NCBI RefSeq assembly: GCF_054482525.1
Contig: NZ_CM137006.1
DNA: 64,000 nt
Strand: one strand, 5' to 3'
Numbering within the stretch: position 1 is the stretch's first letter; each line of letters begins with the position of its first letter. Under the pieces are notes generated by a model. That model made no database searches, had not been told where the DNA came from, and saw nothing but the letters and a program-made list of their open reading frames with translations. Of the stretch, positions 5,065-29,526 are shown one piece after another. The position numbers and the translations under genes are program-made.

Positions 5065-6537
5065 ATGTCCCGAATGGCAGAACAGCAGCTTTATATACAT
5101 GGTGGTTATACCTCCGCCACCAGCGGTCGCACCTTCGAGACCATTAACCCGGCCAACGGTAACGTGCTGGCGACCGTGCAGGCCGCCGGGCGTGAGGATG
5201 TCGATCGCGCCGTGAAGAGTGCCCAACAAGGGCAAAAAATCTGGGCGGCGATGACCGCTATGGAGCGCTCGCGTATTCTGCGTCGGGCCGTTGATATTCT
5301 GCGTGAACGCAATGACGAACTCGCAAAACTGGAAACCCTCGACACCGGAAAAGCGTATTCGGAAACCTCAACCGTCGATATCGTTACCGGCGCGGACGTG
5401 CTCGAGTACTACGCCGGGCTGATCCCGTCGCTGGAAGGCAGCCAGATCCCATTGCGTGAGACGTCATTTGTTTATACCCGCCGCGAACCGCTGGGCGTAG
5501 TGGCAGGGATTGGCGCATGGAACTACCCGATCCAGATTGCCTTGTGGAAATCCGCACCGGCGCTGGCGGCAGGCAACGCGATGATTTTCAAACCGAGCGA
5601 AGTCACCCCGCTTACCGCGTTAAAGCTGGCTGAAATTTACAGCGAAGCGGGCCTGCCGGACGGTGTATTTAACGTGCTGCCGGGCGTAGGTGCGGAAACC
5701 GGGCAGTATCTGACCGAGCATCCGGGCATTGCCAAAGTGTCATTTACCGGCGGTGTCGCCAGCGGCAAAAAAGTGATGGCTAACTCGGCGGCTTCCTCCC
5801 TGAAAGAAGTGACCATGGAGCTGGGCGGTAAATCACCGCTGATCGTTTTCGACGATGCAGATCTCGATCTCGCCGCTGATATCGCCATGATGGCGAACTT
5901 CTTCAGCTCCGGTCAGGTGTGTACCAACGGCACCCGCGTCTTCGTTCCGGCGAAATGCAAAGCCGCATTTGAACAAAAGATTCTGGCGCGCGTTGAGCGC
6001 ATTCGCGCGGGCGACGTTTTCGATCCGCAAACTAACTTCGGCCCGCTGGTCAGCTTCCCGCATCGCGATAACGTGCTGCGTTACATCGCCAAAGGCAAAG
6101 AGGAAGGCGCGCGCGTACTGTGCGGCGGCGATGTATTGAAAGGCGATGACTTCGATAACGGCGCATGGGTTGCACCGACCGTGTTCACCGATTGCCGCGA
6201 CGAAATGACCATCGTGCGCGAAGAGATCTTCGGTCCGGTGATGTCGCTTCTCACTTATGAATCTGAGGACGAAGTGATTCGCCGCGCCAATGATACCGAC
6301 TACGGCCTGGCGGCGGGCATCGTGACGGCGGACCTGAACCGCGCGCATCGCGTCATTCATCAGCTGGAAGCGGGTATTTGCTGGATCAACACCTGGGGCG
6401 AATCCCCGGCAGAGATGCCCGTTGGCGGCTACAAACACTCCGGCATTGGTCGCGAGAACGGCGTGATGACGCTCCAGAGTTACACCCAAGTGAAGTCCAT
6501 CCAGGTTGAGATGGCTAAATTCCAGTCCATATTCTAA
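5065..6537 (+). CDS. betB: Betaine aldehyde dehydrogenase BetB
   Basis: 490-aa aldehyde dehydrogenase family protein; 13-bp gap after betI. Confidence 0.95.
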
Positions 6538-6550
6538 CCAGGAGGTTTAT

Positions 6551-8221
6551 TTGCAATTTGACTACATCATTATTGGTGCCGGCTCAGCCGGCAACGTTCT
6601 CGCTACCCGTCTGACTGAAGATCCGAACACAACCGTGCTGCTGCTTGAAGCAGGCGGCCCGGACTATCGCTTTGACTTCCGCACCCAGATGCCCGCCGCG
6701 CTGGCGTTCCCGTTACAGGGTAAACGCTATAACTGGGCCTATGAGACGGAACCGGAACCGTTTATGAACAACCGTCGCATGGAGTGCGGACGCGGTAAGG
6801 GGCTTGGCGGGTCATCACTGATCAACGGCATGTGTTACATCCGTGGTAACGCGCTGGATCTCGATAACTGGGCGCAAGAACCCGGTCTGGAGAACTGGAG
6901 CTACCTCGACTGTCTGCCCTACTATCGCAAGGCCGAGACTCGCGATGTGGGCGAGAACGACTACCACGGTGGCGATGGCCCGGTGAGCGTCACTACCTCC
7001 AAACCCGGCGTCAATCCGCTGTTTGAAGCGATGATTGAAGCGGGCGTGCAGGCGGGCTACCCGCGCACGGACGATCTCAACGGCTATCAGCAGGAAGGTT
7101 TTGGCCCGATGGATCGCACCGTCACGCCGCATGGCCGTCGCGCCAGCACCGCGCGTGGCTATCTCGATCAGGCCAAATCGCGCCCTAACCTGACCATTCG
7201 TACTCACGCCATGACCGATCACATCATTTTTGACGGCAAACGCGCGGTGGGCGTCGAGTGGCTGGAAGGCGACAGCACTATTCCGACCCGCGCGGCGGCG
7301 AATAAAGAAGTGCTGTTATGTGCAGGCGCGATTGCTTCACCGCAGATCCTGCAACGCTCCGGCGTCGGCAACGCTGAACTGCTGGCGGAATTTGATATTC
7401 CGCTGGTGCATGAATTACCTGGCGTCGGCGAAAATCTTCAGGATCACCTGGAGATGTACCTGCAATATGAGTGCAAAGAACCGGTTTCCCTCTACCCTGC
7501 CCTGCAGTGGTGGAATCAGCCGAAAATCGGTGCGGAGTGGCTGTTTGGCGGCACCGGCGTTGGTGCCAGCAACCACTTTGAAGCAGGCGGATTTATTCGC
7601 AGCCGTGAGGAATTTGCGTGGCCGAATATTCAGTACCACTTCCTGCCAGTGGCGATTAACTATAACGGCTCGAACGCAGTGAAAGAGCACGGCTTCCAGT
7701 GCCACGTCGGATCGATGCGCTCGCCAAGCCGTGGGCATGTGCGGATTAAATCCCGCGACCCGCACCAGCATCCGGCAATTCTGTTTAACTACATGTCGCA
7801 CGAGCAGGACTGGCAGGAGTTCCGCGACGCAATTCGCATCACCCGGGAGATCATGCATCAACCGGCGCTGGATCAGTATCGTGGCCGCGAAATCAGCCCC
7901 GGTGTCGAATGCCAGACGGATGAGCAGCTCAATGAGTTCGTGCGTAACCACGCCGAAACCGCCTTCCACCCGTGCGGTACCTGCAAAATGGGTTATGACG
8001 AGATGGCAGTGGTTGACGCCGAAGGCCGCGTACACGGGCTGGAAGGCCTGCGCGTGGTGGATGCGTCAATTATGCCGCAGATTATCACCGGCAATTTGAA
8101 CGCCACGACTATTATGATTGGCGAGAAAATGGCGGATATGATTCGCGGGAAGGATGCGTTGCCGAGGAGCACGGCGGGATATTATGTGGCAAATGGGATG
8201 CCGGTGAGAGCGAAAAAATGA
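6551..8221 (+). CDS. betA: Choline dehydrogenase BetA (GMC oxidoreductase)
   Basis: TTG start preceded by the GGAGG RBS; FAD-binding motif [11 protein letters not shown]; 556 aa. Confidence 0.92.
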
Positions 8222-12186: not shown

Positions 12187-12712
12187 AACTAATACTCCAT
12201 TACTTCATGCCCATTTATGCCCGATGGTTCCCCCCACCGGGGGATCAATCATCAATAAATATGGCGTTCTTTTTTAATTGGCTAGCAACATACCACCCCT
12301 CATTTGTATGACAAATGATAATCTTTCATCCAAACTTCAAATGCAATAACTAATTTTATTTCTTTCGGCATCGCTCACATTTTATGGGGAAATCGACGAT
12401 CATTTTTGGCATAAGAAATCCATTTAAAAATGGCTACATCTCTTATACCTATTCAGAGCTACTTATTCAGGGGTTATTGAGATATACACTGATGGTGTAC
12501 AAAAAAATCACCGACAATAATCACGTATCAAGTAATAGTCGGCATTTTATTTAATTGAAGCAATTTAGTTTGCATTTTTATTTAAAAACTGAGCTAGAGT
12601 CCATCAGAAAAAAACATATAAATCCCAAACCACCGTTGGAAATAGAAATAGTTGAAAGGCTCACAACTCCCGGAATGCGGATTATCTTTGCCCTGATTTC
12701 TGGCGGTTTTAT

Positions 12713-13567
12713 TCAGGGTGCAAGCTGTCTGACCCTTTCCCGATATTCTCCCGGGGTACAACCAAACTCGCGAACAAACGCCTTGTGAAAAGATGATTCA
12801 CTGGCATAGCCTACTGACTCAGCGATCACCACAACAGGGAGCGTTTCCCGGGAAAACATCTGGGCCGCTATTTGTAGACGCAACTTTGTTAATACAGACA
12901 GCGGCGTGGTTCCGGAAACATCACGGAAAAGCTGGGCAAAACTTGCCCGGGACATGTGGGCGATGCTGGCCAGCGATTCGACGGTCCAGGCGTGTCCTGG
13001 CATTTCCATCATTTGCTGTATTACCGCACCAAGACGTGGATGCAGAAGCAAACTGAGAATGTTTTTCTCTGTATTAACCTGTGCAATCCATTCACGCACC
13101 GCGAGGGTAAAGAATGTAGCGCAGATCTGGCTACACAGAGCATCCACTCCCGGCATTGCCGATCTGGATTCCTGTTGTAAAAACGGGATCGCCTCCCTCA
13201 GCCAGTTATATTCCACGCTGTGGTTAACCGGTGCTACAAACAGCGTTTCCGGCAAAGACGTTAAAAAATAACGCGCCGAATGTTGCAGCCGAAGAGTGCC
13301 ACAGACAATACAGGTCGATTCATTATCGACATGACTCAGGCGATGAGCTGAATTTTGTGGTAGCAGGACCACATTTCCCGGGCGTAATGTAAAAATCTCT
13401 CCCGTCGGCATTTCCAGCTTCGCCGCTCCTTGCGTTAACGCATGCCAACGAATAACCGACAATTCCCCGGCACCATGTGGAAGTTGCCAGTCACTTCCTA
13501 ACACGCAATTCTTATCGATCGTTCCTTGTGGAGCGTTAAGCATCAACAAACGGCTAAGAGCATCCAT
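12713..13567 (-). CDS. rclR: AraC-family reactive-chlorine-responsive activator RclR
   Basis: 284-aa product from MDALSRLLML; C-terminal AraC HTH; divergent from rclA. Confidence 0.9.
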   Translation of the reverse strand: MDALSRLLMLNAPQGTIDKNCVLGSDWQLPHGAGELSVIRWHALTQGAAKLEMPTGEIFTLRPGNVVLLPQNSAHRLSHVDNESTCIVCGTLRLQHSARYFLTSLPETLFVAPVNHSVEYNWLREAIPFLQQESRSAMPGVDALCSQICATFFTLAVREWIAQVNTEKNILSLLLHPRLGAVIQQMMEMPGHAWTVESLASIAHMSRASFAQLFRDVSGTTPLSVLTKLRLQIAAQMFSRETLPVVVIAESVGYASESSFHKAFVREFGCTPGEYRERVRQLAP

Positions 13568-13793
13568 ATCAGACTCCTGAGTAGTTTTTTGATTACAAAC
13601 ACCAACAATCTTAGTCAATAATTAATCTAATACCATCAAATAGTTAATCATGATTTTTGTTTTGTGATTCTGATTAAGAAAAAGAAAATACCAGACGATA
13701 AGACAAAATATCAAGCGTTGTGAAGAAATGTTATTTGCTCTTTTGCGTCTATAGTCATGATGTCAAATGAACGCGTTTCGACAGGAAATCATC

Positions 13794-15119
13794 ATGAATA
13801 AATATCAGGCAGTTATTATTGGTTTTGGCAAGGCTGGAAAAACATTAGCCGTCACGCTGGCAAAAGCAGGTTGGCGTGTGGCTCTCATCGAACAATCAAA
13901 TGCAATGTATGGCGGGACCTGTATTAATATCGGCTGTATCCCAACCAAAACATTGGTTCATGACGCACAGCAGCACACAGATTTTGTCCGTGCCATACAG
14001 CGTAAAAATGAAGTGGTTAATTTTTTACGTAATAAGAATTTTCATAATCTTGCGGATATGCCCAATATCGACGTGATCGACGGCCAGGCGGAGTTTATCA
14101 ATAATCATAGCCTGCGTGTTCATCGGCCTGAGGGAAATCTGGAAATTCATGGCGAGAAAATTTTTATTAATACCGGTGCACAAACCGTGGTTCCGCCAAT
14201 TCCTGGAATTACCACCACGCCAGGAGTATATGACAGCACCGGATTACTTAATCTAAAAGAATTGCCTGGGCATTTAGGTATTTTGGGCGGCGGATATATT
14301 GGCGTTGAGTTCGCCTCTATGTTCGCTAATTTTGGCAGCAAGGTAACCATTTTAGAAGCAGCTTCGCTGTTTTTGCCTCGGGAAGATCGGGATATTGCTG
14401 ATAATATCGCGACGATTTTACGCGATCAGGGCGTCGATATAATCCTCAATGCCCATGTGGAGCGAATCAGTCACCATGAAAATCAAGTGCAAGTGCATAG
14501 CGAGCACGCCCAACTGGCGGTGGATGCACTGTTAATAGCTTCCGGTCGTCAACCGGCTACCGCTTCGTTACATCCAGAAAATGCAGGTATCGCAGTAAAC
14601 GAGCGCGGGGCAATTGTCGTTGACAAGCAATTACATACCACCGCAGACAATATTTGGGCGATGGGAGATGTTACCGGCGGGCTGCAATTTACTTATATTT
14701 CACTGGATGATTACCGCATTGTGCGTGATGAGTTGCTGGGAGAAGGCAGACGTAGTACTGATGATCGGAAAAATGTGCCTTATTCCGTATTCATGACACC
14801 GCCACTGTCCCGGGTTGGTATGACAGAAGAACAGGCCAGAGAGAGTGGTGCTGATATTCAGGTGGTGACATTGCCTGTAGCTGCAATTCCGCGCGCCAGA
14901 GTGATGAACGATACCCGTGGGGTATTAAAAGCGATTGTTGATAATAAAACCCAACGTATATTAGGGGCATCACTGCTGTGTGTTGACTCCCACGAGATGA
15001 TTAATATAGTGAAAATGGTGATGGATGCCGGGCTGCCTTATAGCATATTACGCGATCAGATATTTACTCATCCGTCGATGAGCGAATCACTCAATGATCT
15101 ATTTTCATTACTCAAATAA
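13794..15119 (+). CDS. rclA: Flavoprotein disulfide reductase RclA
   Basis: 441 aa starting MNKYQAVIIGFGKAGK; FAD/NAD Rossmann motifs and CINIGC redox-active site. Confidence 0.93.
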   Translation: MNKYQAVIIGFGKAGKTLAVTLAKAGWRVALIEQSNAMYGGTCINIGCIPTKTLVHDAQQHTDFVRAIQRKNEVVNFLRNKNFHNLADMPNIDVIDGQAEFINNHSLRVHRPEGNLEIHGEKIFINTGAQTVVPPIPGITTTPGVYDSTGLLNLKELPGHLGILGGGYIGVEFASMFANFGSKVTILEAASLFLPREDRDIADNIATILRDQGVDIILNAHVERISHHENQVQVHSEHAQLAVDALLIASGRQPATASLHPENAGIAVNERGAIVVDKQLHTTADNIWAMGDVTGGLQFTYISLDDYRIVRDELLGEGRRSTDDRKNVPYSVFMTPPLSRVGMTEEQARESGADIQVVTLPVAAIPRARVMNDTRGVLKAIVDNKTQRILGASLLCVDSHEMINIVKMVMDAGLPYSILRDQIFTHPSMSESLNDLFSLLK

Positions 15120-15227
15120 ACTCAAAATCAGACGCCAGGACAAATATTCTGGCGTCTCAGAGAAAAGAATCTTATTAATTCCCTGTTATTATATAACTTC
15201 TTAATCACTTCATTGATGGTATTTTAT

Positions 15228-15464
15228 ATGTTTAAAAAATCTGTTTTATTTGCAACACTATTATCTGGCGTTATGGCATTTTCCACCAATGCAGATGATA
15301 AAATAATTCTGAAACATATCAGCGTCTCGTCAGTATCAGCATCACCGACAGTTCTTGAGGATGCCATTGCTGATATAGCCAGAAAATATAATGCTTCATC
15401 CTGGAAAGTCACATCGATGCGAATTGATAATAATTCAACCGCAACAGCAGTATTGTATAAATAA
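15228..15464 (+). CDS. rclB: Small periplasmic protein RclB (DUF1471-like)
   Basis: 78 aa with a signal peptide, MFKKSVLFATLLSGVMAFSTNA. Confidence 0.85.
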   Translation: MFKKSVLFATLLSGVMAFSTNADDKIILKHISVSSVSASPTVLEDAIADIARKYNASSWKVTSMRIDNNSTATAVLYK

Positions 15465-15475
15465 GGATGTTCACA

Positions 15476-16069
15476 ATGGAAAAATACCTGCACCTGTTAA
15501 GTCGGGGAGATAAAATTGGCCTGACATTGATTCGTCTGAGTATTGCGATTGTTTTTATGTGGATTGGGTTATTAAAGTTTGTCCCTTACGAGGCAGACAG
15601 CATTACACCATTCGTCGCAAACAGTCCACTAATGTCGTTCTTTTATGAACACCCGGAAGACTATAAACAGTATCTGACTCACGAAGGCGAATACAAACCA
15701 GAAGCAAGGGCATGGCAAACGGCCAATAATACCTATGGTTTTTCCAACGGTCTTGGCGTCGTGGAGGTGATTATTGCTCTGCTGGTTTTGGCTAATCCTG
15801 TCAATCGCTGGTTAGGTTTATTGGGAGGGCTGATGGCATTTACCACACCGTTGGTAACACTCTCATTTTTAATCACCACCCCGGAGGCATGGGTACCCGC
15901 ATTGGGTGACGCTCATCATGGTTTCCCTTATTTATCCGGTGCTGGTCGCCTGGTATTGAAAGATACTCTGATGCTGGCAGGTGCTGTCATGATAATGGCA
16001 GATTCGGCGCGGGACATTCTTAAACAACGCAGTAATGAATCCAGTTCAACGTTAAAAACTGAATATTGA
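15476..16069 (+). CDS. rclC: Inner-membrane protein RclC
   Basis: 197-aa hydrophobic protein starting MEKYLHLLSRGDKIGL. Confidence 0.88.
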   Translation: MEKYLHLLSRGDKIGLTLIRLSIAIVFMWIGLLKFVPYEADSITPFVANSPLMSFFYEHPEDYKQYLTHEGEYKPEARAWQTANNTYGFSNGLGVVEVIIALLVLANPVNRWLGLLGGLMAFTTPLVTLSFLITTPEAWVPALGDAHHGFPYLSGAGRLVLKDTLMLAGAVMIMADSARDILKQRSNESSSTLKTEY

Positions 16070-16228
16070 TAATCCGAACACTGTCTGTTGTTCACTTTTT
16101 CAGGCGTCAGGCCCCCTTTCTGATAATGAAGCCTGACGCCATATTACCGGAGATATGACAGAGTGAAGATCAATATCACTCCCCTGTTAAAAGATTCTTG
16201 TCGTCTCAGGTAAAATACATGATTAATA

Positions 16229-17113
16229 TCAATCATGTATTTTTACAGCAAGACAACCACGAACAAACTCAGGATTAAAATGTTTTACCGATTCCCCAAC
16301 ATAACCCAAATCAAGCGAACTAATTTGCGCTATTTCTTTCTCTGTCAGTGAGAAATCCCAAATAGCAAAATTTTCTTCGATACGCTGTTGATGTGTCGAT
16401 TTCGGAATAACGACCACTCCCCGTTGAATATTCCAACGCAGAATGACCTGAGAAATCGATTTTTGATGGGCATCTGCAATACTCTGAAGCAGATTATTTT
16501 CAAAGGGTTTATGTCGTCCACCACCTAACGGAGCCCATGCTTCAGGCTGCACGTTATAATACTTCATGGTTGCCAGCGCCTCTGGTTGGGCAAAATAGGG
16601 ATGCAACTCGACCTGGTTGACCATCGGTTTAACTCTTACCGTTTCACAAAAGTTCGCCAGAACATGAGGGTAGAAATTGGAAACCCCAATCGCTTTTAAT
16701 TTGCCCTCTTCATAGGCATCTTCGAGTGCACGCCACGCACTGAAATAATCGCGCATGGCCTGGTGCAATAAATAGAGGTCGAAGTATTCTAGTCCCGATT
16801 TTTTTAATGACGCTTCAATACCTGCTTTTGCCGTATCCTGATTCAACATATCCTGCACCCACAATTTAGACGTTATAAATAACTCTTCTCGGGTACATAA
16901 ACCTTCAGATATGGCTTCACGAACGGCTTCACCGACGGCATCTTCATTACCGTATACCGCTGCAGTGTCGATGAGTCGATAACCCGTGCGGATAGCATTC
17001 AACACTGACTGTTTGCACACGTTTTTATCGGTAACCTGAAAAACACCAAATCCCATCATCGGCATTTTCAGATTGTTACTTAATACGGAAAATTCCACTG
17101 TCAGTCCCTCCAT
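16229..17113 (-). CDS. Aldo-keto reductase (DkgA/DkgB-like), intact
   Basis: AKR motifs ([20 protein letters not shown]); divergent from the Rob-like regulator; a K-12 pseudogene (name not recalled with certainty) appears to be the remnant. Confidence 0.8.
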   Translation of the reverse strand: MEGLTVEFSVLSNNLKMPMMGFGVFQVTDKNVCKQSVLNAIRTGYRLIDTAAVYGNEDAVGEAVREAISEGLCTREELFITSKLWVQDMLNQDTAKAGIEASLKKSGLEYFDLYLLHQAMRDYFSAWRALEDAYEEGKLKAIGVSNFYPHVLANFCETVRVKPMVNQVELHPYFAQPEALATMKYYNVQPEAWAPLGGGRHKPFENNLLQSIADAHQKSISQVILRWNIQRGVVVIPKSTHQQRIEENFAIWDFSLTEKEIAQISSLDLGYVGESVKHFNPEFVRGCLAVKIHD

Positions 17114-17313
17114 TAGGCATGAACAATGAGTCTACGTTAAAACATAACCTCAAATTAGTATGTGGATTTTGATATCACTTATGCAAAAAATTCATTAATA
17201 ATGTAGGGCTGAAACCTCTCTATTTTCGGGGACAACGAAGCAGACGCTACCAGTGCTTTTGCCTTGGGCCTTGCTGTTTTTGATACACTTAGGGCCCAGG
17301 GCATAACGAAAAT

Positions 17314-18204
17314 GTGCGATATGACAAAGAATTAATGGAGAATGTGATGATCAGGCAGAAGATTCTACAGCAGCTCCTGGAGTGGATTGAGTGCAATCTT
17401 GAGCACCCTATTTCAATCGAAGATATCGCACAGAAATCTGGCTACAGCAGACGCAACATCCAGCTTCTGTTCCGAAATTTCATGCATGTGCCTTTGGGAG
17501 AATACATTCGCAAACGAAGGCTTTGTCGTGCCGCCATTCTTGTCCGGCTCACCGCGAAATCTATGCTTGATATTGCACTCTCTTTGCATTTTGATTCACA
17601 GCAGTCATTCAGCCGCGAATTTAAAAAGTTATTCGGCTGCTCTCCCCGTGAATACCGCCACCGTGATTATTGGGATCTCGCAAATATCTTCCCTTCTTTT
17701 TTAATACGTCAACAGCAAAAGACGGAGTGTAAATTAGTCAACTTTCCTGAGACACCTATTTTTGGCGATTCATTTAAATATGACATTGAAGTGTCGAATA
17801 AATCACCGGATGAAGAAGTCAAACTGCGACGTCATCATTTAGCCAGATGTATGAAGAGTTTTAAGACGGATATCTATTTCGTCTCCACATTCGAACCGTC
17901 AACAAAATCGGTCGATTTGCTCACAGTTGAAACTTTTTCCGGTACGGTATGCAAACAAACCGATTCAGAGATGTCGAAAGAGTGGACAATTAACCGAGGA
18001 CTGTATGCCTCTTTCCGCTATGAAGGTGAGTGGGAGCACTACCCTGAATGGGCGCGAAACCTCTATCTGATGGAATTACCTGCCAGGGGGTTAGCCAGAG
18101 TGAACGGCAGTGATATTGAGCGATTTTATTACAATGAAAACTTCGTCGAAATTGATAGCAATAACATTGTTTGCGAAATTTTTATCCCCGTTCGCCCGGT
18201 TTAG
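17314..18204 (+). CDS. ykgA: Rob-like AraC/XylS regulator (MarA-type dual HTH + GyrI-like effector domain), intact
   Basis: N-terminus aligns to the Rob/MarA HTH region (DIALSLHFDSQQSFSREFKKLFGCSPREYR); C-terminus DIERFYYNE...IPVRPV is Rob-like; the true start may be an internal Met. Confidence 0.75.
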   Translation: MRYDKELMENVMIRQKILQQLLEWIECNLEHPISIEDIAQKSGYSRRNIQLLFRNFMHVPLGEYIRKRRLCRAAILVRLTAKSMLDIALSLHFDSQQSFSREFKKLFGCSPREYRHRDYWDLANIFPSFLIRQQQKTECKLVNFPETPIFGDSFKYDIEVSNKSPDEEVKLRRHHLARCMKSFKTDIYFVSTFEPSTKSVDLLTVETFSGTVCKQTDSEMSKEWTINRGLYASFRYEGEWEHYPEWARNLYLMELPARGLARVNGSDIERFYYNENFVEIDSNNIVCEIFIPVRPV

Positions 18205-18258
18205 CTGTAGCGATGTTTACATGAATTTATAACGAGACTACTGTCAGGCAATTCAATA

Positions 18259-18295
18259 AATAATGGCGTTGAAGATGTCAACGCCATTATTGTTT
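18259..18295. terminator. Bidirectional hairpin terminator between ykgA and eaeH
   Basis: 13-bp inverted repeat ATAATGGCGTTGA / TCAACGCCATTAT flanked by A- and T-runs. Confidence 0.6.
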
Positions 18296-18324
18296 ATTAG
18301 AATGTTACTTTCATATTCTTAATA

Positions 18325-21300
18325 TTACTTCATCGCCTCCTCGCCCTTTGCCGTATCGGCATCCACCGCGGTTATGGTCACCGTCACTGGCTTCATTTCG
18401 TACCCGCCATAGGTCAGGGCGTTAAATGTGAACGTATAGACACCAGGCTTGCTGGTACTAAATGTACGCGTGATTTTTCCGCTCACGAAATGGTCATTTT
18501 TCGACGGCAGGAATTGATAATCCTTCTCCGTCACTCCTTCCGGAGCCTCAATGTCGACCCACACATTCCCCCCAACAGGGTTATTTGCCGAGAACAGGGT
18601 AACCTCCAGCTTCGCAGTCGATTTCCCATCCGCCACCAGCGATTGCACATCAGATGATGCGGTGAGCTCCGCGTTTTTATCATCCGCGACGAATTTAGAT
18701 TCGGCAGTTTTCGTTGATACCTGACCGTTGGTCTGACTCACTTGCGCCTTGAGTGTGTATGTCGCCGCAACAGTAGTGGTAGCGGTGAAAATAGCCTGCC
18801 CTTGCTCATTCGTTGTCGCAGTGCCATTCGGTTCCAGGTTTAACGAAGCCGGGCTGGCAGTCAGCGTCACGTCGCTATCTTTCAACAGGTTGTTATTGGC
18901 ATCAGTCACCGTAACTTTATACGTCTGTTTGGCTTTGCCGTCCGCCAGTGCATAGTTGCCAATCATCTCAATACTGGAAACGGTTGCGGTAGCCTTATCG
19001 GCTACAAACGTTATAGTCTGCGCATCTGAAGGCTGGTCATTTCCTGCCGACGCCGTGATCTCATAGGTTCCGGCAGTCACGGAAACCACCTGCAACTCTG
19101 CTTTCCCCTCATCGTTGGCTTTCACCCAGACATTATCGCCAGTAAGCGGCTTGACACCCCGGGGCAGATTAAAGGTCACCAGTGTGCCTGGAACAGGGTT
19201 ACCGTTTTTATCCTCAACGGTCACCGTCAGCGTAAAGGCATCTTTGCCGTTTGCCACTTTTTGAACGGCGGTGTCTACCTGCAGGTTTGCCTGACCGGTG
19301 CTGGCATCCGCGTTGAATTTCACCGTGACCGTCTTCTGAGAGTTTTTCACCGCGGCCGCGATTTCAAGTTCCCCTGCAACGGTTGATATCAATTCAATAT
19401 CCGCTTTACCTGCCGCATTGGTTGTTACTGTATTCCCCGTCTTGCTAGTCACACCCTGCGGTAAAGTCAGCGTAACTTCTTGCCCCTGCAACGGGTTACC
19501 ATAGCTGTCCACGACGGTCAGGGTTACCTGGTTAGCAGACTGTCCATTTGCCAGTTGGTTATTCACCTTCACCGCCATATCACTGATCACTGCCCGGGAA
19601 GCGTCGCCTGCAACATTCAGCACCAGTGGCTGAGCAACGGCATTTTGGCCGTTCACTCGCGGCATCACAGACAACTGACCCGCGGCAGATCCCAGCGTTA
19701 AGGTCGCCACGTAGACCCCATTACCTTTCTCTGTCCAGTTTCCTGCTGAAGGACGCTCACTCCCCGTGCTGGCGGCACCGCTAAACACTGGTGCATCTGG
19801 CTTCAGCCCGGTGACCGAGTTCCCATACGCATCCTTCACGGTGAAGGTGAGTTCCGTCGTCGTTTTGACGGTCGGAGCCTTATTGTCCGCAACAAGCGTA
19901 GAGTTCGCTGATGACATCTCTCCGGCGATGACCGTCAACTGTGCGGCTTCGGTGGCTGCTGGCTGGCCGTTGAAGAGCGGCATGACGCGAAGCTCGCCCG
20001 TCTTTCCGCCTGTAGTCAACGTAGCAACATAGGAACCGTCACCTTTTTCGGTCCAACTGGAAACGGTCGCCCCTTCAGAGGCGGTCCCCGTCAAACTTGC
20101 CGACAACGAAAGACCACTGATAGCGTTGCCATGTGCATCTTTTGCAATAAGCGTCACGGTTGTGCTTTCGCCGGCTTTTACGTGATCTTCTGCGACAGAG
20201 ACTTTCGACTGGTTTGAAGATAACGCATCAGCCACCACGGTTACTTTTGCCGCATTTGCTGCCGCATCCTGTCCATTTAGCTTCGGCATAACTTCTAATT
20301 CACCCGCCGTAGAGCCGAGAGTAATCTGCGCAGTCCACGTCCCATCACCATTATTTGTCCAGCCCGATGCCGTAGAACCTACAGCAGCGGCACCCGCTAA
20401 TGACGGCGCTTCCGGCGTGAGGCTGGTCACAGGGTTGTCATAGGCATCTTTTACCGTCCAGATTGCCGTAACTGTACCCCCAACCACCGGTTTATCAGGA
20501 TTCAGGGTGATGGACGAATGTGCTGCATCAAGCGGCCCGGCAACAAACTTCAGCGTTTGTTGTAATGTGCCCAGTTGATACTGCTCGCTGAAGGCACGTA
20601 CAACAACGTTTCCGGCACGGGTCGAAGAAACCGTGGCGCTGTAAACCCCTGGTTTTATTTCCGAAATGGCACCAACGGTAACACCATTAGTGTCTTGCGG
20701 AACAAGTCGCAGGCGGATGGCTTCTCCCGTCACCGGATTACCCTCGGAGTCCACCGCAGTCAGCGTCAGCGTGTAGGCTTGCTGACCATCAGCAACCACG
20801 TCACCTGACGGCTCGTTAGCGCTCAGGGTGGAGTTTGCCACATCCATCATCGTGGCCCGCAGTTCTGCAGTGACGGTTTTGCTCATGCCATCAACGCTAA
20901 CAGTAATCGTTGCCTCACCTGACTGCGTTCCGGTAGTAAAGACAGACTGATACACCCCTGCTTCAGTTTCGGTGAACTCACCCAGTGTTGGCTTTGCCTG
21001 TGATTTAGTGGCCTTCAGGGTACGAGTCACAATATTTCCAGCCGGTTTGAAGGTTAGTTCAGTCTTGATCTGATCTTTCATGCCCGTGACTGGCTGGCCC
21101 TCGGCGTCGCGCAGAGACAGCACCAGCGGCTTTTGCTCATTACCGTTAGCAAGCATTTGAATACGGCTCTGACCGTCAAGCGTTAACGCCGTACGATCGG
21201 CGCTCATACCAGCTCCGCTAATAACCACTTCTGTCTGCACACGTTTCGAGGCATTGCCTTTGTTATCGTAGGCAATCGCTGAAATCGCATAATAATTGTC

Positions 21301-22578
21301 TTTGCCTGGACGATAAGCCGGGAGCGTTACTTGCCACTGACTACCCTGACCGGTAATTTTGCCACCTTCAGCCAGTAATGACGGCGCTTCCCACTGCACA
21401 TTTTTCAGTCCGTGAGTTGCTTTGCTGACCACAAGCCCCAGGGAAACCGTCTGACCGCCCTTACCTTCAATCCGCTCAGGCAGAGCAATACGGATCACTT
21501 CAGATTTGCGGTACTCAAGAACGATGTTGTTATTACGCTCAACCAGGTCATAGCGGCTGCCTGCCAGCATTCGACGCTCGCGAATGCTGTCTGTATCGAG
21601 TTGTTTTTGCAGAGGTTCGCCAATCCGATAATTAACTTCCAGGCCAAAGCGAGTGTCATTCTCACCACTCTTGCCCTGCTTATGCCCGGCACTCAGGGTC
21701 AGAAGAGGCACTGGCGTGTAATTCACTTCAGCGGTAATCGCATGTGGATCTTTCTGGCGTTTATCTTTGCCAAACAGCCCGACTTCATCGCCATAATACT
21801 GCTCATACATCAGGCTTGCGCCAAGCTGCGGCCAGGCGGGTAAATAGCCCTCAGCACGAATATCCCAGCCATTCGCCGGGCGTTCCTGATAATCCTCAAC
21901 ATCCGGCGATTTTTTCCAGCCAGAAGCCCGGATATAACCATTGGCGCTCAATTTCAAATAATCACGCCAGTATTCCGCACCAACACCAATGCGGGTATGA
22001 CTACGGGATAAATCATGGTCGATAAAGGTGTTCACCCCCGCCATCCAGTCATTTCCTGAAAAATGACGCCAGCCAAAACCAATATTTGACTGAGTACGAT
22101 CGTCGGTACGATGTATTGCTCCCTGAGTGAACAACATATTTGTCGGCGTATCATAAATAGGATAAAGCATTTCCAGCGAAGAATCCTTCAGCGAGAATTC
22201 TTTATCGACATTCAGTTTGACGCGCGCAGTACCATATTTCCCGAGCCACTCCTGTATTTCCTGGTTAGCTTTAGCTGTGGCCATTCCGGTAATAAAGTTA
22301 CGTGTCGCATCGCTATCTGGCTGACTGCTTAAAAATGTCCCGGCATTTGCGGCAAACGACGCGACATTTTTCTCCACATTATTATCAGCAGCTACCGTGG
22401 TATTTTCCATGCTCAACCGTGGCTGAACCGCATGCTGCGCGCGTGCCGCCATTACTGGGGTAAAGGTGACAGCGAGTGGAAAAAGAACCTGAACAGAGAT
22501 ATTTGCCCACGCCACGCAGCGGGCCAGAACTGAATAACGAAATCGTGGTTGTTTATGACCTGTTTTATAACGTGACAT
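18325..22578 (-). CDS. eaeH: Intimin/invasin-like inverse autotransporter adhesin EaeH (FdeC), full length
   Basis: 1417-aa ORF with N-terminal signal and beta-barrel region followed by many Big-like repeats; uninterrupted, unlike the IS3-disrupted K-12 allele. Confidence 0.9.
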   Translation of the reverse strand: MSRYKTGHKQPRFRYSVLARCVAWANISVQVLFPLAVTFTPVMAARAQHAVQPRLSMENTTVAADNNVEKNVASFAANAGTFLSSQPDSDATRNFITGMATAKANQEIQEWLGKYGTARVKLNVDKEFSLKDSSLEMLYPIYDTPTNMLFTQGAIHRTDDRTQSNIGFGWRHFSGNDWMAGVNTFIDHDLSRSHTRIGVGAEYWRDYLKLSANGYIRASGWKKSPDVEDYQERPANGWDIRAEGYLPAWPQLGASLMYEQYYGDEVGLFGKDKRQKDPHAITAEVNYTPVPLLTLSAGHKQGKSGENDTRFGLEVNYRIGEPLQKQLDTDSIRERRMLAGSRYDLVERNNNIVLEYRKSEVIRIALPERIEGKGGQTVSLGLVVSKATHGLKNVQWEAPSLLAEGGKITGQGSQWQVTLPAYRPGKDNYYAISAIAYDNKGNASKRVQTEVVISGAGMSADRTALTLDGQSRIQMLANGNEQKPLVLSLRDAEGQPVTGMKDQIKTELTFKPAGNIVTRTLKATKSQAKPTLGEFTETEAGVYQSVFTTGTQSGEATITVSVDGMSKTVTAELRATMMDVANSTLSANEPSGDVVADGQQAYTLTLTAVDSEGNPVTGEAIRLRLVPQDTNGVTVGAISEIKPGVYSATVSSTRAGNVVVRAFSEQYQLGTLQQTLKFVAGPLDAAHSSITLNPDKPVVGGTVTAIWTVKDAYDNPVTSLTPEAPSLAGAAAVGSTASGWTNNGDGTWTAQITLGSTAGELEVMPKLNGQDAAANAAKVTVVADALSSNQSKVSVAEDHVKAGESTTVTLIAKDAHGNAISGLSLSASLTGTASEGATVSSWTEKGDGSYVATLTTGGKTGELRVMPLFNGQPAATEAAQLTVIAGEMSSANSTLVADNKAPTVKTTTELTFTVKDAYGNSVTGLKPDAPVFSGAASTGSERPSAGNWTEKGNGVYVATLTLGSAAGQLSVMPRVNGQNAVAQPLVLNVAGDASRAVISDMAVKVNNQLANGQSANQVTLTVVDSYGNPLQGQEVTLTLPQGVTSKTGNTVTTNAAGKADIELISTVAGELEIAAAVKNSQKTVTVKFNADASTGQANLQVDTAVQKVANGKDAFTLTVTVEDKNGNPVPGTLVTFNLPRGVKPLTGDNVWVKANDEGKAELQVVSVTAGTYEITASAGNDQPSDAQTITFVADKATATVSSIEMIGNYALADGKAKQTYKVTVTDANNNLLKDSDVTLTASPASLNLEPNGTATTNEQGQAIFTATTTVAATYTLKAQVSQTNGQVSTKTAESKFVADDKNAELTASSDVQSLVADGKSTAKLEVTLFSANNPVGGNVWVDIEAPEGVTEKDYQFLPSKNDHFVSGKITRTFSTSKPGVYTFTFNALTYGGYEMKPVTVTITAVDADTAKGEEAMK

Positions 22579-23128
22579 TGAGATAATTTCCTGATGAACG
22601 AATTAACGAACATAGGCAGACACAAATAGTGGCGTCTGCTTGTCAGAAAAACCGGGAAATCCCCGATTTCCTTTTCCGCAGAAAAGGAAATACCTTTATG
22701 TAAGAAAGTACACCGCCACCTAATATATCCAGTGTCTGTAGCCACTCATCAGGTGGTTGGGCGCGGGATTATATTTTTATTTATGGGTAAAAATTTAGCT
22801 TTTTGTGCAAGTCATTAAATAGATACTTAAGTTATATTTCTTACTCTGCGGGCAGTGAATAATTCATTATTCAGAGTGAATAATAATGACCCGTCTTTAA
22901 TTAATCGCTATTGGGAATACGTCGAAGTAGGTATATACACCAGGATAAACCAATATATTTTTTATGGATATTCATTTTCCTTCATCAGACTGTGAATTGC
23001 AGGGATATCGAACTTGCACGACTCATCGCAACACTCAAGCAGATTTATGAATTTCGTTCATAACCCCTGACAAATCCTGCCGTCTAATCGAGCTCTTCTC
23101 TTTACGTTATGCTTCTCATGAACGATAA

Positions 23129-25995
<2,867 letters not shown>

Positions 25996-26135
25996 CTATT
26001 ATTTTAGCCACATTATTAGTAACAATGATAATCTGGCTGTATCGAAAATAATTCTAAACTTTCAGGAGATTTATTATGAATAAACGTATCCTCACGATTG
26101 CGCCATTCTTCTTACCGATATTCTGACACATATCA

Positions 26136-27062
26136 TCAATTTTCGAGTTTTACTCTTTTCTCCACCATAAAATCAATAAAAGCACGAACTTTAGAGGGCA
26201 TTCTCACCCGTGATGAAACATATATATAAAATCCAGGAAATGAAACGGCCCAATCCTCAAGAATCGGCTGTAACTTGCCCGCATTAATATGTTCAGCGAT
26301 TGCAAAATCCAGATGTTGAATGATACCCGTTCCATTCAGCGCCATTCGTATCATGCTTTCGTCATCATTAGAAATATACTTACCTGACACCTCTATTTCG
26401 AACTCTTCATTACCCCCCACAACATTCGAAAACTCCCATGCAGAGAGTGCACCGCTACTTTTATGCCGCAACCGAAGACAATTATGGTTACTCAATTCCT
26501 GAGGCGTTTCAGGAATACCGTGTTCTTTTAAATAATCTGGCGATGCCACAGTAACCAGTTTAATAAGCGGAGAAACAGGAACGGCAGTCATATGCTCATC
26601 CAGTCCTTGCTCAAGACGTATGCCCACATCACAGCCGTCCGCAATAATGTTAGATAAACCGTCATCCATAATGAGTTCTATCTTTGTTTTGGGGTAACGA
26701 GTAAGAAACTCGCCAATATGAGGCTCAACAAGCATCCGTGCTGCAACACGGGAGGAATTTATTCTCAACAGGCCTGTAGGTTCAAGTTGGGTATCACCAA
26801 CATCTTTCAAAGCATCATCAATTTGTCCCAAAGCCGACACCAGCACTTCATACAGACGCTGTCCTTCCTCAGTAAGCGACATATTGCGGGTCGTACGGTA
26901 TATCAGCTTGGTGTTAAGACGTTCCTCAAGAGATTTTAAATTCTGGGACAATGCGGCCCGCGTAATACCCATTTCAGAAGCGGCTCTGGAAAAACTGCCG
27001 GCACGAACAATAAGCGCAAACCAGGCAAGAGAAGGCAAAATTGAAGGCTCTATTTTCATCAT
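26136..27062 (-). CDS. LysR-family transcriptional regulator
   Basis: HTH FALIVRAGSFSRAASEMGITRAALSQNLKSLEE; divergent from the hydrolase gene; start uncertain (Met32/33 of the track ORF). Confidence 0.8.
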   Translation of the reverse strand: MMKIEPSILPSLAWFALIVRAGSFSRAASEMGITRAALSQNLKSLEERLNTKLIYRTTRNMSLTEEGQRLYEVLVSALGQIDDALKDVGDTQLEPTGLLRINSSRVAARMLVEPHIGEFLTRYPKTKIELIMDDGLSNIIADGCDVGIRLEQGLDEHMTAVPVSPLIKLVTVASPDYLKEHGIPETPQELSNHNCLRLRHKSSGALSAWEFSNVVGGNEEFEIEVSGKYISNDDESMIRMALNGTGIIQHLDFAIAEHINAGKLQPILEDWAVSFPGFYIYVSSRVRMPSKVRAFIDFMVEKRVKLEN

Positions 27063-27218
27063 TGTAAACCTTAACTTAACACTGTGATAGATATTAGACC
27101 ATTGATGATAACCAATACAAGTCATACTATTACGCCGTTCTCGATATGAACACAAATGCCAGTTGCGGATAATAGAAATGATATTTAAATCTGTTTAGGC
27201 AAATCCCCGGAGCTTGAA

Positions 27219-28139
27219 ATGAAAACTGTTTCGATAAAACACACTTACTGGGATATAGCTGCTGATATCTATTTCCCTGACGATTTTAATAGTAAAAAAA
27301 AGTATCCTGCCATTATCAGCGCCCATCCAATTGGAAGCTGCAAAGAACAGACATCGGGTAGTGTGTATGGTGCCGCCCTGGCAAAAGCTGGCTTTATCGT
27401 CATTGCTTTTGATGCCAGTTTTCAGGGAAGCAGCGGTGGGGAACCGCGTTATCTGGAAGATCCAACAATGCGAGTAAAAGACTTCAGCATTGTCGTTGAT
27501 TACCTTACCAGCTTACCTTACGTTGATGCCTGGCGTATTGGTGTACTGGGTATTTGTGGTGGAGGTGGATATGCCATTAATGCCGCAATGACAGAACGTC
27601 GAATTAAAGCTATTGGTACTGTCACGGGTGCAAACTACGGGCGTCTTATGCGTGAGGGATTTACAGCGTTTAATCCTATCGGAGCACTCGAAGCAATGGC
27701 GCAACAAAGAACAGACGAAGCTAACGGCGCAAAACTTCGCGTAGATGATTTACTCCCCTCTTCTCCAGATGCAGCTCTTGAAGCGGGATTAACAGAAATA
27801 GACCTTTTTGAAGCCACAGAATATTATCGTTCGCCACGAGGCTGTGCACCTAATGGGGTAAATCGTTCGCTATTCTCACATCAGACTGTTGCCGTGGGTT
27901 GGGATGCATTTCATCTTGCAGAAGTGCTGTTAACTCAACCAATAATGGTTGTGGTGGGCGATAGAGTGGGCGCATTTGGTGCCTACCGTGACGGCTGCGA
28001 AATTATTGGCCGCGCTGCCTCAAAACATAAAGAGCTGGTCGTGGTTGAAGGTTATTCACATTACGACCTGTATGATAAGCCAGAACCGGTGAAACAGGCA
28101 CTCGATAAATTAATTCCTTTTTATAAAACACATTTGTAA
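27219..28139 (+). CDS. Alpha/beta-fold hydrolase, dienelactone-hydrolase-like (GxCxG nucleophile)
   Basis: 306 aa with a GICGGGGYA elbow; no signal peptide. Confidence 0.75.
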   Translation: MKTVSIKHTYWDIAADIYFPDDFNSKKKYPAIISAHPIGSCKEQTSGSVYGAALAKAGFIVIAFDASFQGSSGGEPRYLEDPTMRVKDFSIVVDYLTSLPYVDAWRIGVLGICGGGGYAINAAMTERRIKAIGTVTGANYGRLMREGFTAFNPIGALEAMAQQRTDEANGAKLRVDDLLPSSPDAALEAGLTEIDLFEATEYYRSPRGCAPNGVNRSLFSHQTVAVGWDAFHLAEVLLTQPIMVVVGDRVGAFGAYRDGCEIIGRAASKHKELVVVEGYSHYDLYDKPEPVKQALDKLIPFYKTHL

Positions 28140-28383
28140 TAATTTTACAGGGAGATTCCTTATCTCCCTGACATTTATCCTTTATTGACTACACAACAAT
28201 AATAAAATTACTCAAAAAGAAATTTCATTAAAGAAACAAAAAAGCAGCAACTCAATTATTAAGATTATTAGAACCCCTTTGAAGGGATTATAAATAAAGC
28301 CAGAAATCTTGGTTCCAAAGCTGGCAACAACTAACCAGTTAAAACATACGCATCAAAATCAGATAAACATTTGAGGTATTGTT

Positions 28384-29526
28384 ATGACAAATAAACACCC
28401 ATCATTGTTTTCTCCTTTTATGCTGACAGAAAAAATAAAGCTACGTAATCGTATCGTTATGGCTCCTATGACGACCTGGTCAGCGAATCCTGATGGAACC
28501 ATCTCTGAGCAAGAACTCGAATTTTATAAACGCCGCTCACAAAATGTTGGTTTAGTAATAACAGGATGTACCTATGTCACGCCAAGCGGCATTGGGTTTA
28601 CTCATGAATTTGCCGCATATGACGACCGTTTCATTAACAGCCTTGAAAAGTTAGCAGCGGCAGCCCAAAGTGGGGGTGCTCCGGCTATTTTGCAGATTTT
28701 CCACGCCGGTAATAAAGCCATCCCGGAGCTTGTACCAAATAACGATGTTATTAGTGCCAGCGCATCAAGCGTAAAATCTGGTGACTTTGTGAAGAGAGTG
28801 GTACAAAGCAGGGAAATGACTGAAAACGAAATTCAGGAAACCATTAGAGCATTCGGAGATGTCACAAAAAGGGCGATTAAAGCAGGTTTTGATGGCATTG
28901 AACTTCATGGTGCGCACGGATTCCTTCTACAGAATTTCTTCTCCCCTCTATTTAACCAGCGTAATGACCGATGGGGAGGAGATCTCGAAGGACGTATGCG
29001 CTTCCCGCTGGCCGTATTACAGGAAGTAAAAAATGTAGTCTATGAATATGCGACAAAGCCCTTTGCCATCGGTTACAGAATATCTCCTGAAGAATCTGCA
29101 ACAGGGGGGCTGCGGATAGAGGATACTTATAAACTCCTTGATCGGCTCATTTCATCCGGTATTTCGTATATACATACCTCGCTGGTCAGTATTAACGATA
29201 GCTACCCTGTTGAGTCGCCAAATGGCCCCCGAACTATTGAATTGATTTTAAATCATATTGCAGGCAGAGTGCCGGTAATCGCCGCAGGTAAAATACGCAC
29301 ACCGTCTCAGGCTCAAGAAGCAATTTCCGCTGGCCTGCCACTTGTTGCGATCGGTAAAGGGCTGGTGATAAATCCAGAATGGGTGACTTTAGCTGAATCA
29401 GGTAGAAGCCATGAAATTCAAACAACCCTTAATCCACAACTTGTTCCTGAATTAACCATTCCGGATAAACTATGGGATCAAATTCAGGCATCTAGAGGAA
29501 CTGGCTGGTTTCCGTTAATGGATTAA
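28384..29526 (+). CDS. NADH:flavin oxidoreductase (Old Yellow Enzyme family)
   Basis: 380 aa TIM-barrel flavoenzyme with the HGAHGFLLQNFFSP motif. Confidence 0.85.
   Translation: MTNKHPSLFSPFMLTEKIKLRNRIVMAPMTTWSANPDGTISEQELEFYKRRSQNVGLVITGCTYVTPSGIGFTHEFAAYDDRFINSLEKLAAAAQSGGAPAILQIFHAGNKAIPELVPNNDVISASASSVKSGDFVKRVVQSREMTENEIQETIRAFGDVTKRAIKAGFDGIELHGAHGFLLQNFFSPLFNQRNDRWGGDLEGRMRFPLAVLQEVKNVVYEYATKPFAIGYRISPEESATGGLRIEDTYKLLDRLISSGISYIHTSLVSINDSYPVESPNGPRTIELILNHIAGRVPVIAAGKIRTPSQAQEAISAGLPLVAIGKGLVINPEWVTLAESGRSHEIQTTLNPQLVPELTIPDKLWDQIQASRGTGWFPLMD

Follow-up and report, generated by a model that had tools for sequence, protein, structure and literature searches.

Which gene does the Rob-like regulator YkgA control? 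The question is raised by a 6.8 kb region within a DNA stretch of 64,000 nt (NCBI RefSeq assembly GCF_054482525.1, contig NZ_CM137006.1; hereafter the window), where ykgA lies between a divergent aldo/keto reductase gene, here called AKR1, and the convergent gene fdeC (eaeH), which encodes an inverse-autotransporter adhesin. YkgA, recognised in 2000 as a Rob/SoxS paralogue, was still without assigned function or targets in 2007 (PMC2064960); a literature search for later papers naming a YkgA target found none. The initial annotation of the locus had taken AKR1 as the probable target. Comparison of loci across genera, together with a conserved marbox-type site in the fdeC promoter, corrects this pairing: the conserved partner of ykgA is, on the evidence of genomic context, fdeC, and YkgA emerges as the most likely activator of fdeC, a reading to which we give about even chances.

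Linkage of ykgA to fdeC and to AKR1

A single genome-collection scan yielded 12 loci, a number that limits the statistics. Orthologues with at least 65% identity are present in Salmonella enterica (locus L004), Kosakonia sacchari (L005), the divergent 'E. coli' E69 (L011), a metagenome contig (L022), a contig rich in insertion sequences (IS; L021) and other Escherichia (L009 and L010), and in all of these loci except L021 a convergent fdeC orthologue follows downstream of ykgA. The genes flanking the pair differ in every genus, amounting to five chromosomal contexts among Escherichia, Salmonella, Kosakonia and the metagenome contig, and AKR1 accompanies the pair only in the rcl-region context of Escherichia (E. 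coli, L009 and L010). DNA similarity to the window extends from 17241-17338 to 22810-22811 in Salmonella, Kosakonia and E69. Since the similarity is bounded and the flanks vary, ykgA, fdeC and about 230 bp 5' of fdeC behave as one transferable unit. The best-supported reading of these loci is that of a co-inherited two-gene unit, located at about 17340-22811, of which AKR1 and its paralogue AKR2, on the other side of fdeC, would be just the Escherichia flanks. FdeC orthologues share 70% identity in Salmonella and 89-90% in other Escherichia species. When linkage was approached from the FdeC side, the only non-Escherichia match above 60%, besides that of Kosakonia L005, was a Salmonella protein at 64%, which has an unrelated N-terminus and upstream region and whose contig ends inside the gene, hence it is uninformative on linkage.

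The pairing of the initial annotation can be stated as a model in which YkgA responds to a carbonyl or xenobiotic compound by turning on the divergent AKR1. A GyrI-like sensor beside a detoxifying reductase is a plausible theme, and the divergent arrangement is real, the two genes being 248 bp apart in E. coli, E. whittamii and Escherichia sp. E1V33. However, adjacency is confined to the rcl-region context of these three Escherichia, and is missing in Salmonella, Kosakonia, E69, L021 and L022. In Salmonella, Kosakonia, L021 and L022 the homology block starts 1-13 bp 5' of the ykgA ATG, so that the intergenic DNA falls outside the conserved unit. AKR1 is also frequently lost where ykgA stays: a full-length ykgA is present in 4,630 of 5,426 complete E. 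coli genomes and a full-length AKR1 in just 2,936, which corresponds to at least 1,694 genomes (4,630 minus 2,936) that lost AKR1 while keeping ykgA, and the metagenome contigs long enough to judge carry ykgA in 12 of 12 cases (10 full length) and a full AKR1 in 4 of 12. Seen from the reductase, orthologues of AKR1 with 81-86% identity in Klebsiella, Salmonella salamae and Vibrio natriegens occupy unrelated contexts with no YkgA neighbour. A GyrI-like gene 3.5 kb from the S. salamae orthologue was considered as a YkgA and rejected, as it is not a YkgA relative.

Concerning the intergenic region, where a mar/sox/rob box was to be expected under this model, no match with two or fewer mismatches to the consensus AYnGCACnnWnnRYYAAAY was found in 17099-17346. 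At three mismatches the same interval yields one poor match only, at chance level and over the ykgA start codon, and its best match to the YkgA-associated box described below carries 8 mismatches in 19 positions, the median of random segments. The regions 5' of ykgA in seven other loci contain no good marbox. A published computational list does include a weak marbox-like 15-mer (about 17276-17290) overlapping the K-12 ykgA transcription start, which a K-12 start-site dataset puts near window position 17278 (PMC12052159, supplementary file 3), and PCN033 differs from K-12 by one base within this 15-mer. AKR1 is the weakest of the options for a YkgA target, and we consider the model highly improbable; the adjacency of both genes is best read as a by-product of where the ykgA-fdeC unit lies.

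The fdeC promoter and its marbox-type box

The sequence CTTGCACAAAAAGCTAAATT (22811-22792, minus strand), upstream of fdeC, fits the 20-bp marbox consensus AYnGCACnnWnnRYYAAAYn with a single mismatch, at position 1. It is the sole match with at most one mismatch in the window, where chance predicts 1.3; the mere occurrence of such a match is therefore no proof, and the argument is carried by position and conservation. The DNA block common to Salmonella, Kosakonia and E69 ends exactly at this box. An invariant AAAAATATAATCC, containing TATAAT (22773-22768), lies 18 bp downstream, and the -35 position reads AAATTT, with no recognisable -35 element. In six lineages the box and the -10 block are invariant and their spacing is fixed. 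Sequence changes occur in the 13-nt spacer and in the DNA upstream, and the letters that are kept match the marbox elements GCAC and GCTAAAT. Assuming a transcription start about 7 nt after the -10, the box would cover the interval from about -50 to -31 around a centre at -40.5, its GCAC being the distal and its AAA the proximal element, hence a predicted class II geometry relative to the predicted -10. The class II arrangement is known from micF (about -41, CAC-N-AAA) and from lpxC, lpxL and rfaY (PMC8811837, PMC12052159). With the -35 missing and a class II box in its place, the fdeC promoter should need an activator.

Published data bear on this promoter in three ways. A reporter insert starting 17 nt 5' of the box (primer P0184) keeps temperature-dependent FdeC expression (PMC11143625), which places a functional promoter downstream of 22828. 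A genome-wide search for marboxes was restricted to sites no more than 200 bp from a start codon, and its supplement gives for this locus only the weak site at the ykgA start (PMC12052159); the fdeC box probably escaped that list because it stands at least 214 bp from the ATG. Finally, chromatin immunoprecipitation sequencing of MarA in H10407, an ETEC (enterotoxigenic E. coli) strain that carries eaeH, gave no peak between degP and lacZ (PMC5684230). This argues weakly against MarA acting at fdeC; occlusion by H-NS, mentioned by the authors of that study, could explain the missing peak.

Association of the box with YkgA-type regulators

The IS-rich contig L021 separates the box from fdeC. Its YkgA orthologue (65% identity) is followed by a gene for an EAL-domain phosphodiesterase (6016-7092, minus strand), not by fdeC, and about 270 bp upstream of this gene stand the identical 19-nt box, a 13-nt spacer and ATAAAAATATAAT. 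Altogether 32 positions are fixed with exact spacing, in the midst of DNA that, the leader included, is unrelated to the fdeC locus. Other Rob-like proteins, more distantly related (32-42% identity) and with the YSRR helix 3 described below, are likewise encoded near boxes, here with 2-3 mismatches. Two of these loci, those of Budvicia and E. albertii, have the box ahead of the gene for the regulator; the Citrobacter and Buttiauxella loci have it ahead of a gene for a CsgD/FimZ-like LuxR regulator in a chaperone-usher fimbrial cluster. A TATnnT motif occurs at the same offset from the box in three of the four genera. In Citrobacter and Buttiauxella the YSRR-type regulators themselves are encoded inside the fimbrial clusters (L015 7001-13805 and L017 1115-7849).

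Taking one locus per lineage, the box at up to three mismatches was matched nine times in 182 kb, compared to 0.05 expected from shuffles, and not once in 110 kb of control DNA. A metagenome scan for the box plus the -10 core returned 117 matches, all 117 of them fdeC leaders, and thus no new cargo gene, and a plasmid search with the L021 ykgA-EAL segment recovered only chromosomal fragments filed as plasmids and EAL homologues that have no box. The L021 core and the boxes near distant YSRR regulators suggest that the box goes with YkgA.

These data also speak to the possibility that fdeC has no dedicated activator, the box being part of a core promoter with an H-NS nucleation site or a UP-like AT-rich element, both genes being neighbours through joint transfer, and H-NS, temperature and the leader sufficing for control. 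Such an explanation would draw on the published control of fdeC by H-NS and temperature (see below), on the AT-rich character of the region (38% GC), on the chance expectation of about one consensus match in 64 kb and on a strongly structured leader that sequesters the Shine-Dalgarno sequence. It would leave without explanation the 32 positions fixed at exact spacing amid unrelated DNA in L021, as well as the fact that the conserved letters are precisely the marbox elements while the spacer drifts; moreover, an unaided sigma-70 promoter lacking a -35 would be weak. We regard it as quite unlikely.

YkgA as candidate activator of fdeC

The initial annotation described YkgA as a Rob-like regulator with a dual helix-turn-helix and a GyrI-like domain, in agreement with the Pfam and structural comparisons. 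The N-terminal part (about 100 residues; Pfam HTH_18, 1.3e-19, and HTH_AraC, 2.6e-16) contains two helix-turn-helix motifs and aligns end to end with SoxS, Rob, RamA and MarA, and the C-terminal part is GyrI-like (PF06445, residues 138-294 of the 296-residue open reading frame). The whole protein aligns with the Rob structures 1d5y and 7vwy (E = 5e-39, 32% identity). Helix 6 (DSQQSFSREF; SQQxFxR) matches MarA, SoxS, Rob and RamA. [quoted passage not shown]

The difference in helix 3 leads to another explanation, namely that the box is a true marbox used by MarA, SoxS or Rob, that fdeC belongs to the mar/sox/rob stress regulon and that YkgA is linked to fdeC in some other capacity, as an antagonist or as a regulator of unlinked genes. 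The box is, after all, one mismatch away from the consensus of these proteins, its RE2 element is presumably identical to that of the mar promoter, and MarA, SoxS and Rob keep the K-W-x-L-Q-R helix that reads GCAC whereas YkgA does not. Family members furthermore share boxes and cross-regulate each other's genes (PMC2064960). Against such a stress regulon speak, however, the missing MarA peak at the locus in ETEC H10407, the exact box and -10 core that accompany a YkgA orthologue in front of an unrelated gene in L021, and the clustering of similar boxes in YSRR-regulator loci of five genera but not in control DNA; clustering of this kind is expected from co-inheritance of box and regulator, not from a general stress regulon. 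Hence, we judge this explanation rather unlikely.

Activation of fdeC by YkgA must itself be set against a number of contrary observations. YkgA scores below the RobA equivalog cut-offs of NCBIfam (194.4 bits versus 380, and 172.8 versus 426) and is, as the scores are well under these cut-offs, a Rob paralogue and not Rob. Its helix 3 lacks the Trp and the Arg that are invariant in the four aligned marbox binders (SRRNIQL versus SKWHLQR). In the MarA-DNA structure these two residues contact the GCAC element, which YkgA may therefore not read in the same way. A convergent gene pair is not the classical layout of a regulator and its target. The missing MarA peak shows that not every family member occupies the fdeC box in vivo. 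Four of the nine box matches are homologous fdeC promoters, which leaves about five independent contexts, and the non-Escherichia sample is small, comprising one Salmonella genome, one Kosakonia, two metagenome contigs and one IS-rich contig. Lastly, the fdeC transcription start (about 22762) is predicted from sequence only, and activation by YkgA is itself a prediction.

With these points in mind, the mechanism that we propose for YkgA and fdeC is as follows. fdeC would be transcribed from a promoter with a good -10 (22773-22768) and no -35, the marbox-type box covering the -35 position. The GyrI-like domain of YkgA would sense a small molecule, and YkgA would bind the box at 22811-22792 as a monomer, bringing in RNA polymerase and working against the silencing of fdeC by H-NS. 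The structured leader, predicted to hide the ribosome-binding site, may add the known temperature control.

On a broader scale, YkgA could represent the first of a distinct clade of Rob paralogues that sense ligands, carry a YSRR helix 3 and serve surface-adhesion loci and not drug or stress resistance, activating class II promoters with TTGCAC-N5-GCTAAAT in front of fdeC, a cyclic di-GMP phosphodiesterase and CsgD/FimZ-like fimbrial regulators. We put this generalisation forward tentatively, as a possibility that is on balance doubtful. If true, it would explain the scant laboratory expression of FdeC. The adhesin FdeC/EaeH, conserved broadly, is a vaccine antigen against extraintestinal pathogenic E. 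coli and ETEC that is silent under standard conditions. A switch operated by YkgA through the box would provide a handle for antigen expression and a pointer to a signal that triggers adhesion, and an orphan of a well-studied regulator family would gain a function.

FdeC, its published regulation and the fdeC leader

As the initial annotation had it, the adhesin is uninterrupted: a single open reading frame of 1417 residues, which RefSeq names FdeC, has an N-terminal IAT_beta domain (PF11924, 1.9e-110), followed by nine Invasin_D3 and four Big_1 stretches. Expression of fdeC is under H-NS and temperature control (Easton 2014, as cited in PMC11143625), and production of FdeC is reported to be restricted to 39-42 °C or above (PMC11143625). 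LmiA represses fdeC indirectly, via unidentified intermediate regulators (PMC11657066). A literature search for YkgA as activator of fdeC found no such report.

The predicted leader of about 184 nt folds at -65.5 kcal/mol (z = -4.8 versus shuffles) and contains three conserved hairpins, at 22690-22667, 22666-22651 and 22641-22613. Across six lineages they show five compensatory pairs, and 97% of the cells are paired versus 37-58% with slid partners. After the second hairpin, the U-run UUUUUCUGA (22651-22643) pairs with UCAGGAAA (22594-22587), which includes the Shine-Dalgarno AGGA, in both the minimum free energy and the consensus folds; this helix is invariant, hence covariation neither supports nor refutes it. 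An Rfam search of leader plus promoter returned no family. Since FdeC is made only at 39-42 °C or above, a thermometer-like role of the leader is a reasonable idea, and the modelled fold may act as an RNA thermometer; the second hairpin and the U-run could instead form an attenuator.

Gene integrity, K-12 lesions and prevalence

The 6.8 kb region is identical (100%) to the chromosome of E. coli PCN033, as found by megablast against the 5,426 complete genomes, which bears out the initial annotation's assignment to a non-K-12 strain. RefSeq annotates the PCN033 genes as rclC, aldo/keto reductase, helix-turn-helix protein and fdeC. A six-frame list gives three uninterrupted open reading frames at the coordinates of the initial annotation: 16229-17113 (minus strand, 294 residues), 17314-18204 (plus, 296 residues) and 18325-22578 (minus, 1417 residues). 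Their intactness therefore stands, and the start codons of the first two need moving. For ykgA the start is most likely ATG 17347 (285 residues), not GTG 17314: all orthologues begin there with M-[IVL]-[RK], a GGAG lies 7 nt 5', and the same start is used by the Prokaryotic Genome Annotation Pipeline and in K-12. For AKR1 it is most likely GTG 17098 (289 residues), with GGAGG 7 nt 5', and ATG 17113 is a probable over-extension; 289 residues is the length of nearly all full-coverage AKR1 orthologues listed. With both starts corrected, the intergenic region becomes 17099-17346 (248 bp). Coordinates are collected in Table 1.

Table 1. Features of the ykgA-fdeC locus and its flanks, in window coordinates.
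Feature	Position	Strand	Basis or remark
AKR1, aldo/keto reductase	16229..17098	-	Open reading frame, Pfam, 1vp5 alignment; K-12 remnant is ykgQ
AKR1-ykgA intergenic region	17099..17346	.	Without mar/sox/rob-type box
ykgA, Rob paralogue, dual helix-turn-helix and GyrI-like	17347..18204	+	Open reading frame, Pfam, Rob alignment
Hairpin with 14-bp stem between the convergent ykgA and fdeC 3' ends	18259..18291	.	Perfect stem; candidate bidirectional terminator
fdeC (eaeH), inverse autotransporter adhesin, 1417 residues	18325..22578	-	Open reading frame, Pfam, RefSeq name
fdeC 5' leader, predicted, about 184 nt	22579..22762	-	Conserved hairpins; predicted transcription start
fdeC -10, predicted, invariant TATAAT	22768..22773	-	Alignments of orthologous promoters
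Marbox-type site CTTGCACAAAAAGCTAAATT	22792..22811	-	Consensus match, conservation, geometry
AKR2, AKR1 paralogue, divergent from fdeC	23144..23995	+	First gene of the 6.3 kb block absent from K-12

Alignment to MG1655 mapped the lesions in all three genes, confirming that the window holds intact versions of K-12 pseudogenes. In K-12, AKR1 has lost about 16358-16448, between the 9-bp direct repeats TGAGAAATC, and, in a second deletion, about 16496-17084; ykgQ, the residue of both deletions, is the last 129 bp of the gene. IS3A replaces about 18010-21702, interrupting ykgA at about 18010 with loss of the last 60-odd codons, and eaeH corresponds to window 21703-22578 alone, keeping the first 292 fdeC codons. 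Despite its truncated ykgA, K-12 has retained the marbox-type box. A further block of 6.3 kb (23130-29434) is missing from K-12. This block holds two more aldo/keto reductases, two LysR regulators, an alpha/beta hydrolase and an NADH-dependent flavin oxidoreductase of the old yellow enzyme type; the final 90 bp of the oxidoreductase gene survive in K-12 as ykgP. An 82-bp match (H30), considered as a second copy of the promoter, was rejected as a deletion remnant.

At least 80% of the 6.8 kb region is present in one place in 4,491 of the 5,426 complete E. coli genomes, and ykgA plus fdeC in about 83-85% of them. Only a partial AKR1 is found in about 2,100 of the genomes, most of which retain ykgA and fdeC; the K-12-type internal deletion (16358-17084) also occurs outside K-12, in many other strains, and the partial copies sampled are the K-12-type remnant, which covers roughly 20% of AKR1. 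In earlier surveys, complete fdeC was found in 67% of 126 genomes and 83% of the E. coli reference (ECOR) collection (Goh et al. 2019, PMC6714894), and Nesta et al. 2012 (PMC3324786) drew the 'fdeC cluster' with its regulators and reductases as well as the K-12 pseudogene. The intact locus is thus the ordinary, majority state in E. coli, already described in 2012. By themselves, intact AKR1, ykgA and fdeC matter little, being the normal condition of the species and the K-12 lesions long described; the useful outcome is a corrected, testable regulator-target pair.

As to the reductase, AKR1 is full length, as initially annotated, with a complete Aldo_ket_red domain (PF00248, 6e-43, profile positions 18-289 of 291). 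Its best solved relative is 1vp5, with LIDTAAVYGNE, TSKLW and LLHQ aligning to the catalytic Asp/Tyr/Lys/His motifs. AKR1 and AKR2 are paralogues with 44% identity. Orthologues of AKR1 that are 80-86% identical occur, in unrelated contexts, in Klebsiella, Kluyvera, Enterobacter, Salmonella, Vibrio, Marinomonas and other marine Gammaproteobacteria, which for an uncharacterised reductase would reflect either unusually high conservation or recent transfer. In Escherichia sp. E1V33 (L009 5422-5743) the stretch with rclR and rclABC (window 12384-16234) is missing, and AKR1 directly adjoins the ykgEFG side.

Comparison with known systems

At the protein level the adhesin of the window is identical in kind to FdeC/EaeH (Nesta 2012; Easton 2014), with an IAT beta-barrel, Big_1/Invasin_D3 repeats and no LysM. 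The published regulation of FdeC/EaeH concerns H-NS, temperature, pH and host contact, and in the accessible papers neither YkgA nor a marbox is mentioned. AKR1 resembles DkgA/DkgB, YvgN and TM1009 (1vp5) in its full (alpha/beta)8 domain, with tetrad motifs that align with 1vp5, but differs from DkgA and DkgB in scoring under both of their equivalog cut-offs (234.8 bits versus 425 and 161.3 versus 327).

Like the fourU and ROSE thermometers that sequester the Shine-Dalgarno sequence, the fdeC leader is predicted to pair a U-rich stretch with AGGA; unlike them, the pairing is long-range and encloses another hairpin, and no Rfam family matches it. The predicted promoter is similar to micF, fumC, lpxC P2, lpxL P1 and rfaY P1, having a forward, asymmetric 20-bp box that would overlap the -35 at about -41, a good -10 and a poor -35. 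It differs from them in its long leader, with the box at least 214 bp from the start codon.

YkgA has the same two-domain architecture as Rob along its full length, and its helix 6 is conserved as in the MarA/SoxS/RamA group, whereas its helix 3 differs from that of Rob, MarA, SoxS and RamA and its gene is linked to an adhesin, not to efflux or stress genes. In this last respect it recalls Rns, CfaD, AggR and PerA, AraC-family activators that are encoded beside adhesin loci and act against H-NS silencing. Those regulators have another N-terminal domain, no GyrI-like sensor and other sites, while YkgA is of the MarA/Rob branch. If confirmed, YkgA and fdeC would add a new regulator-target pair to a well-known kind of system; the kind itself would not be new.

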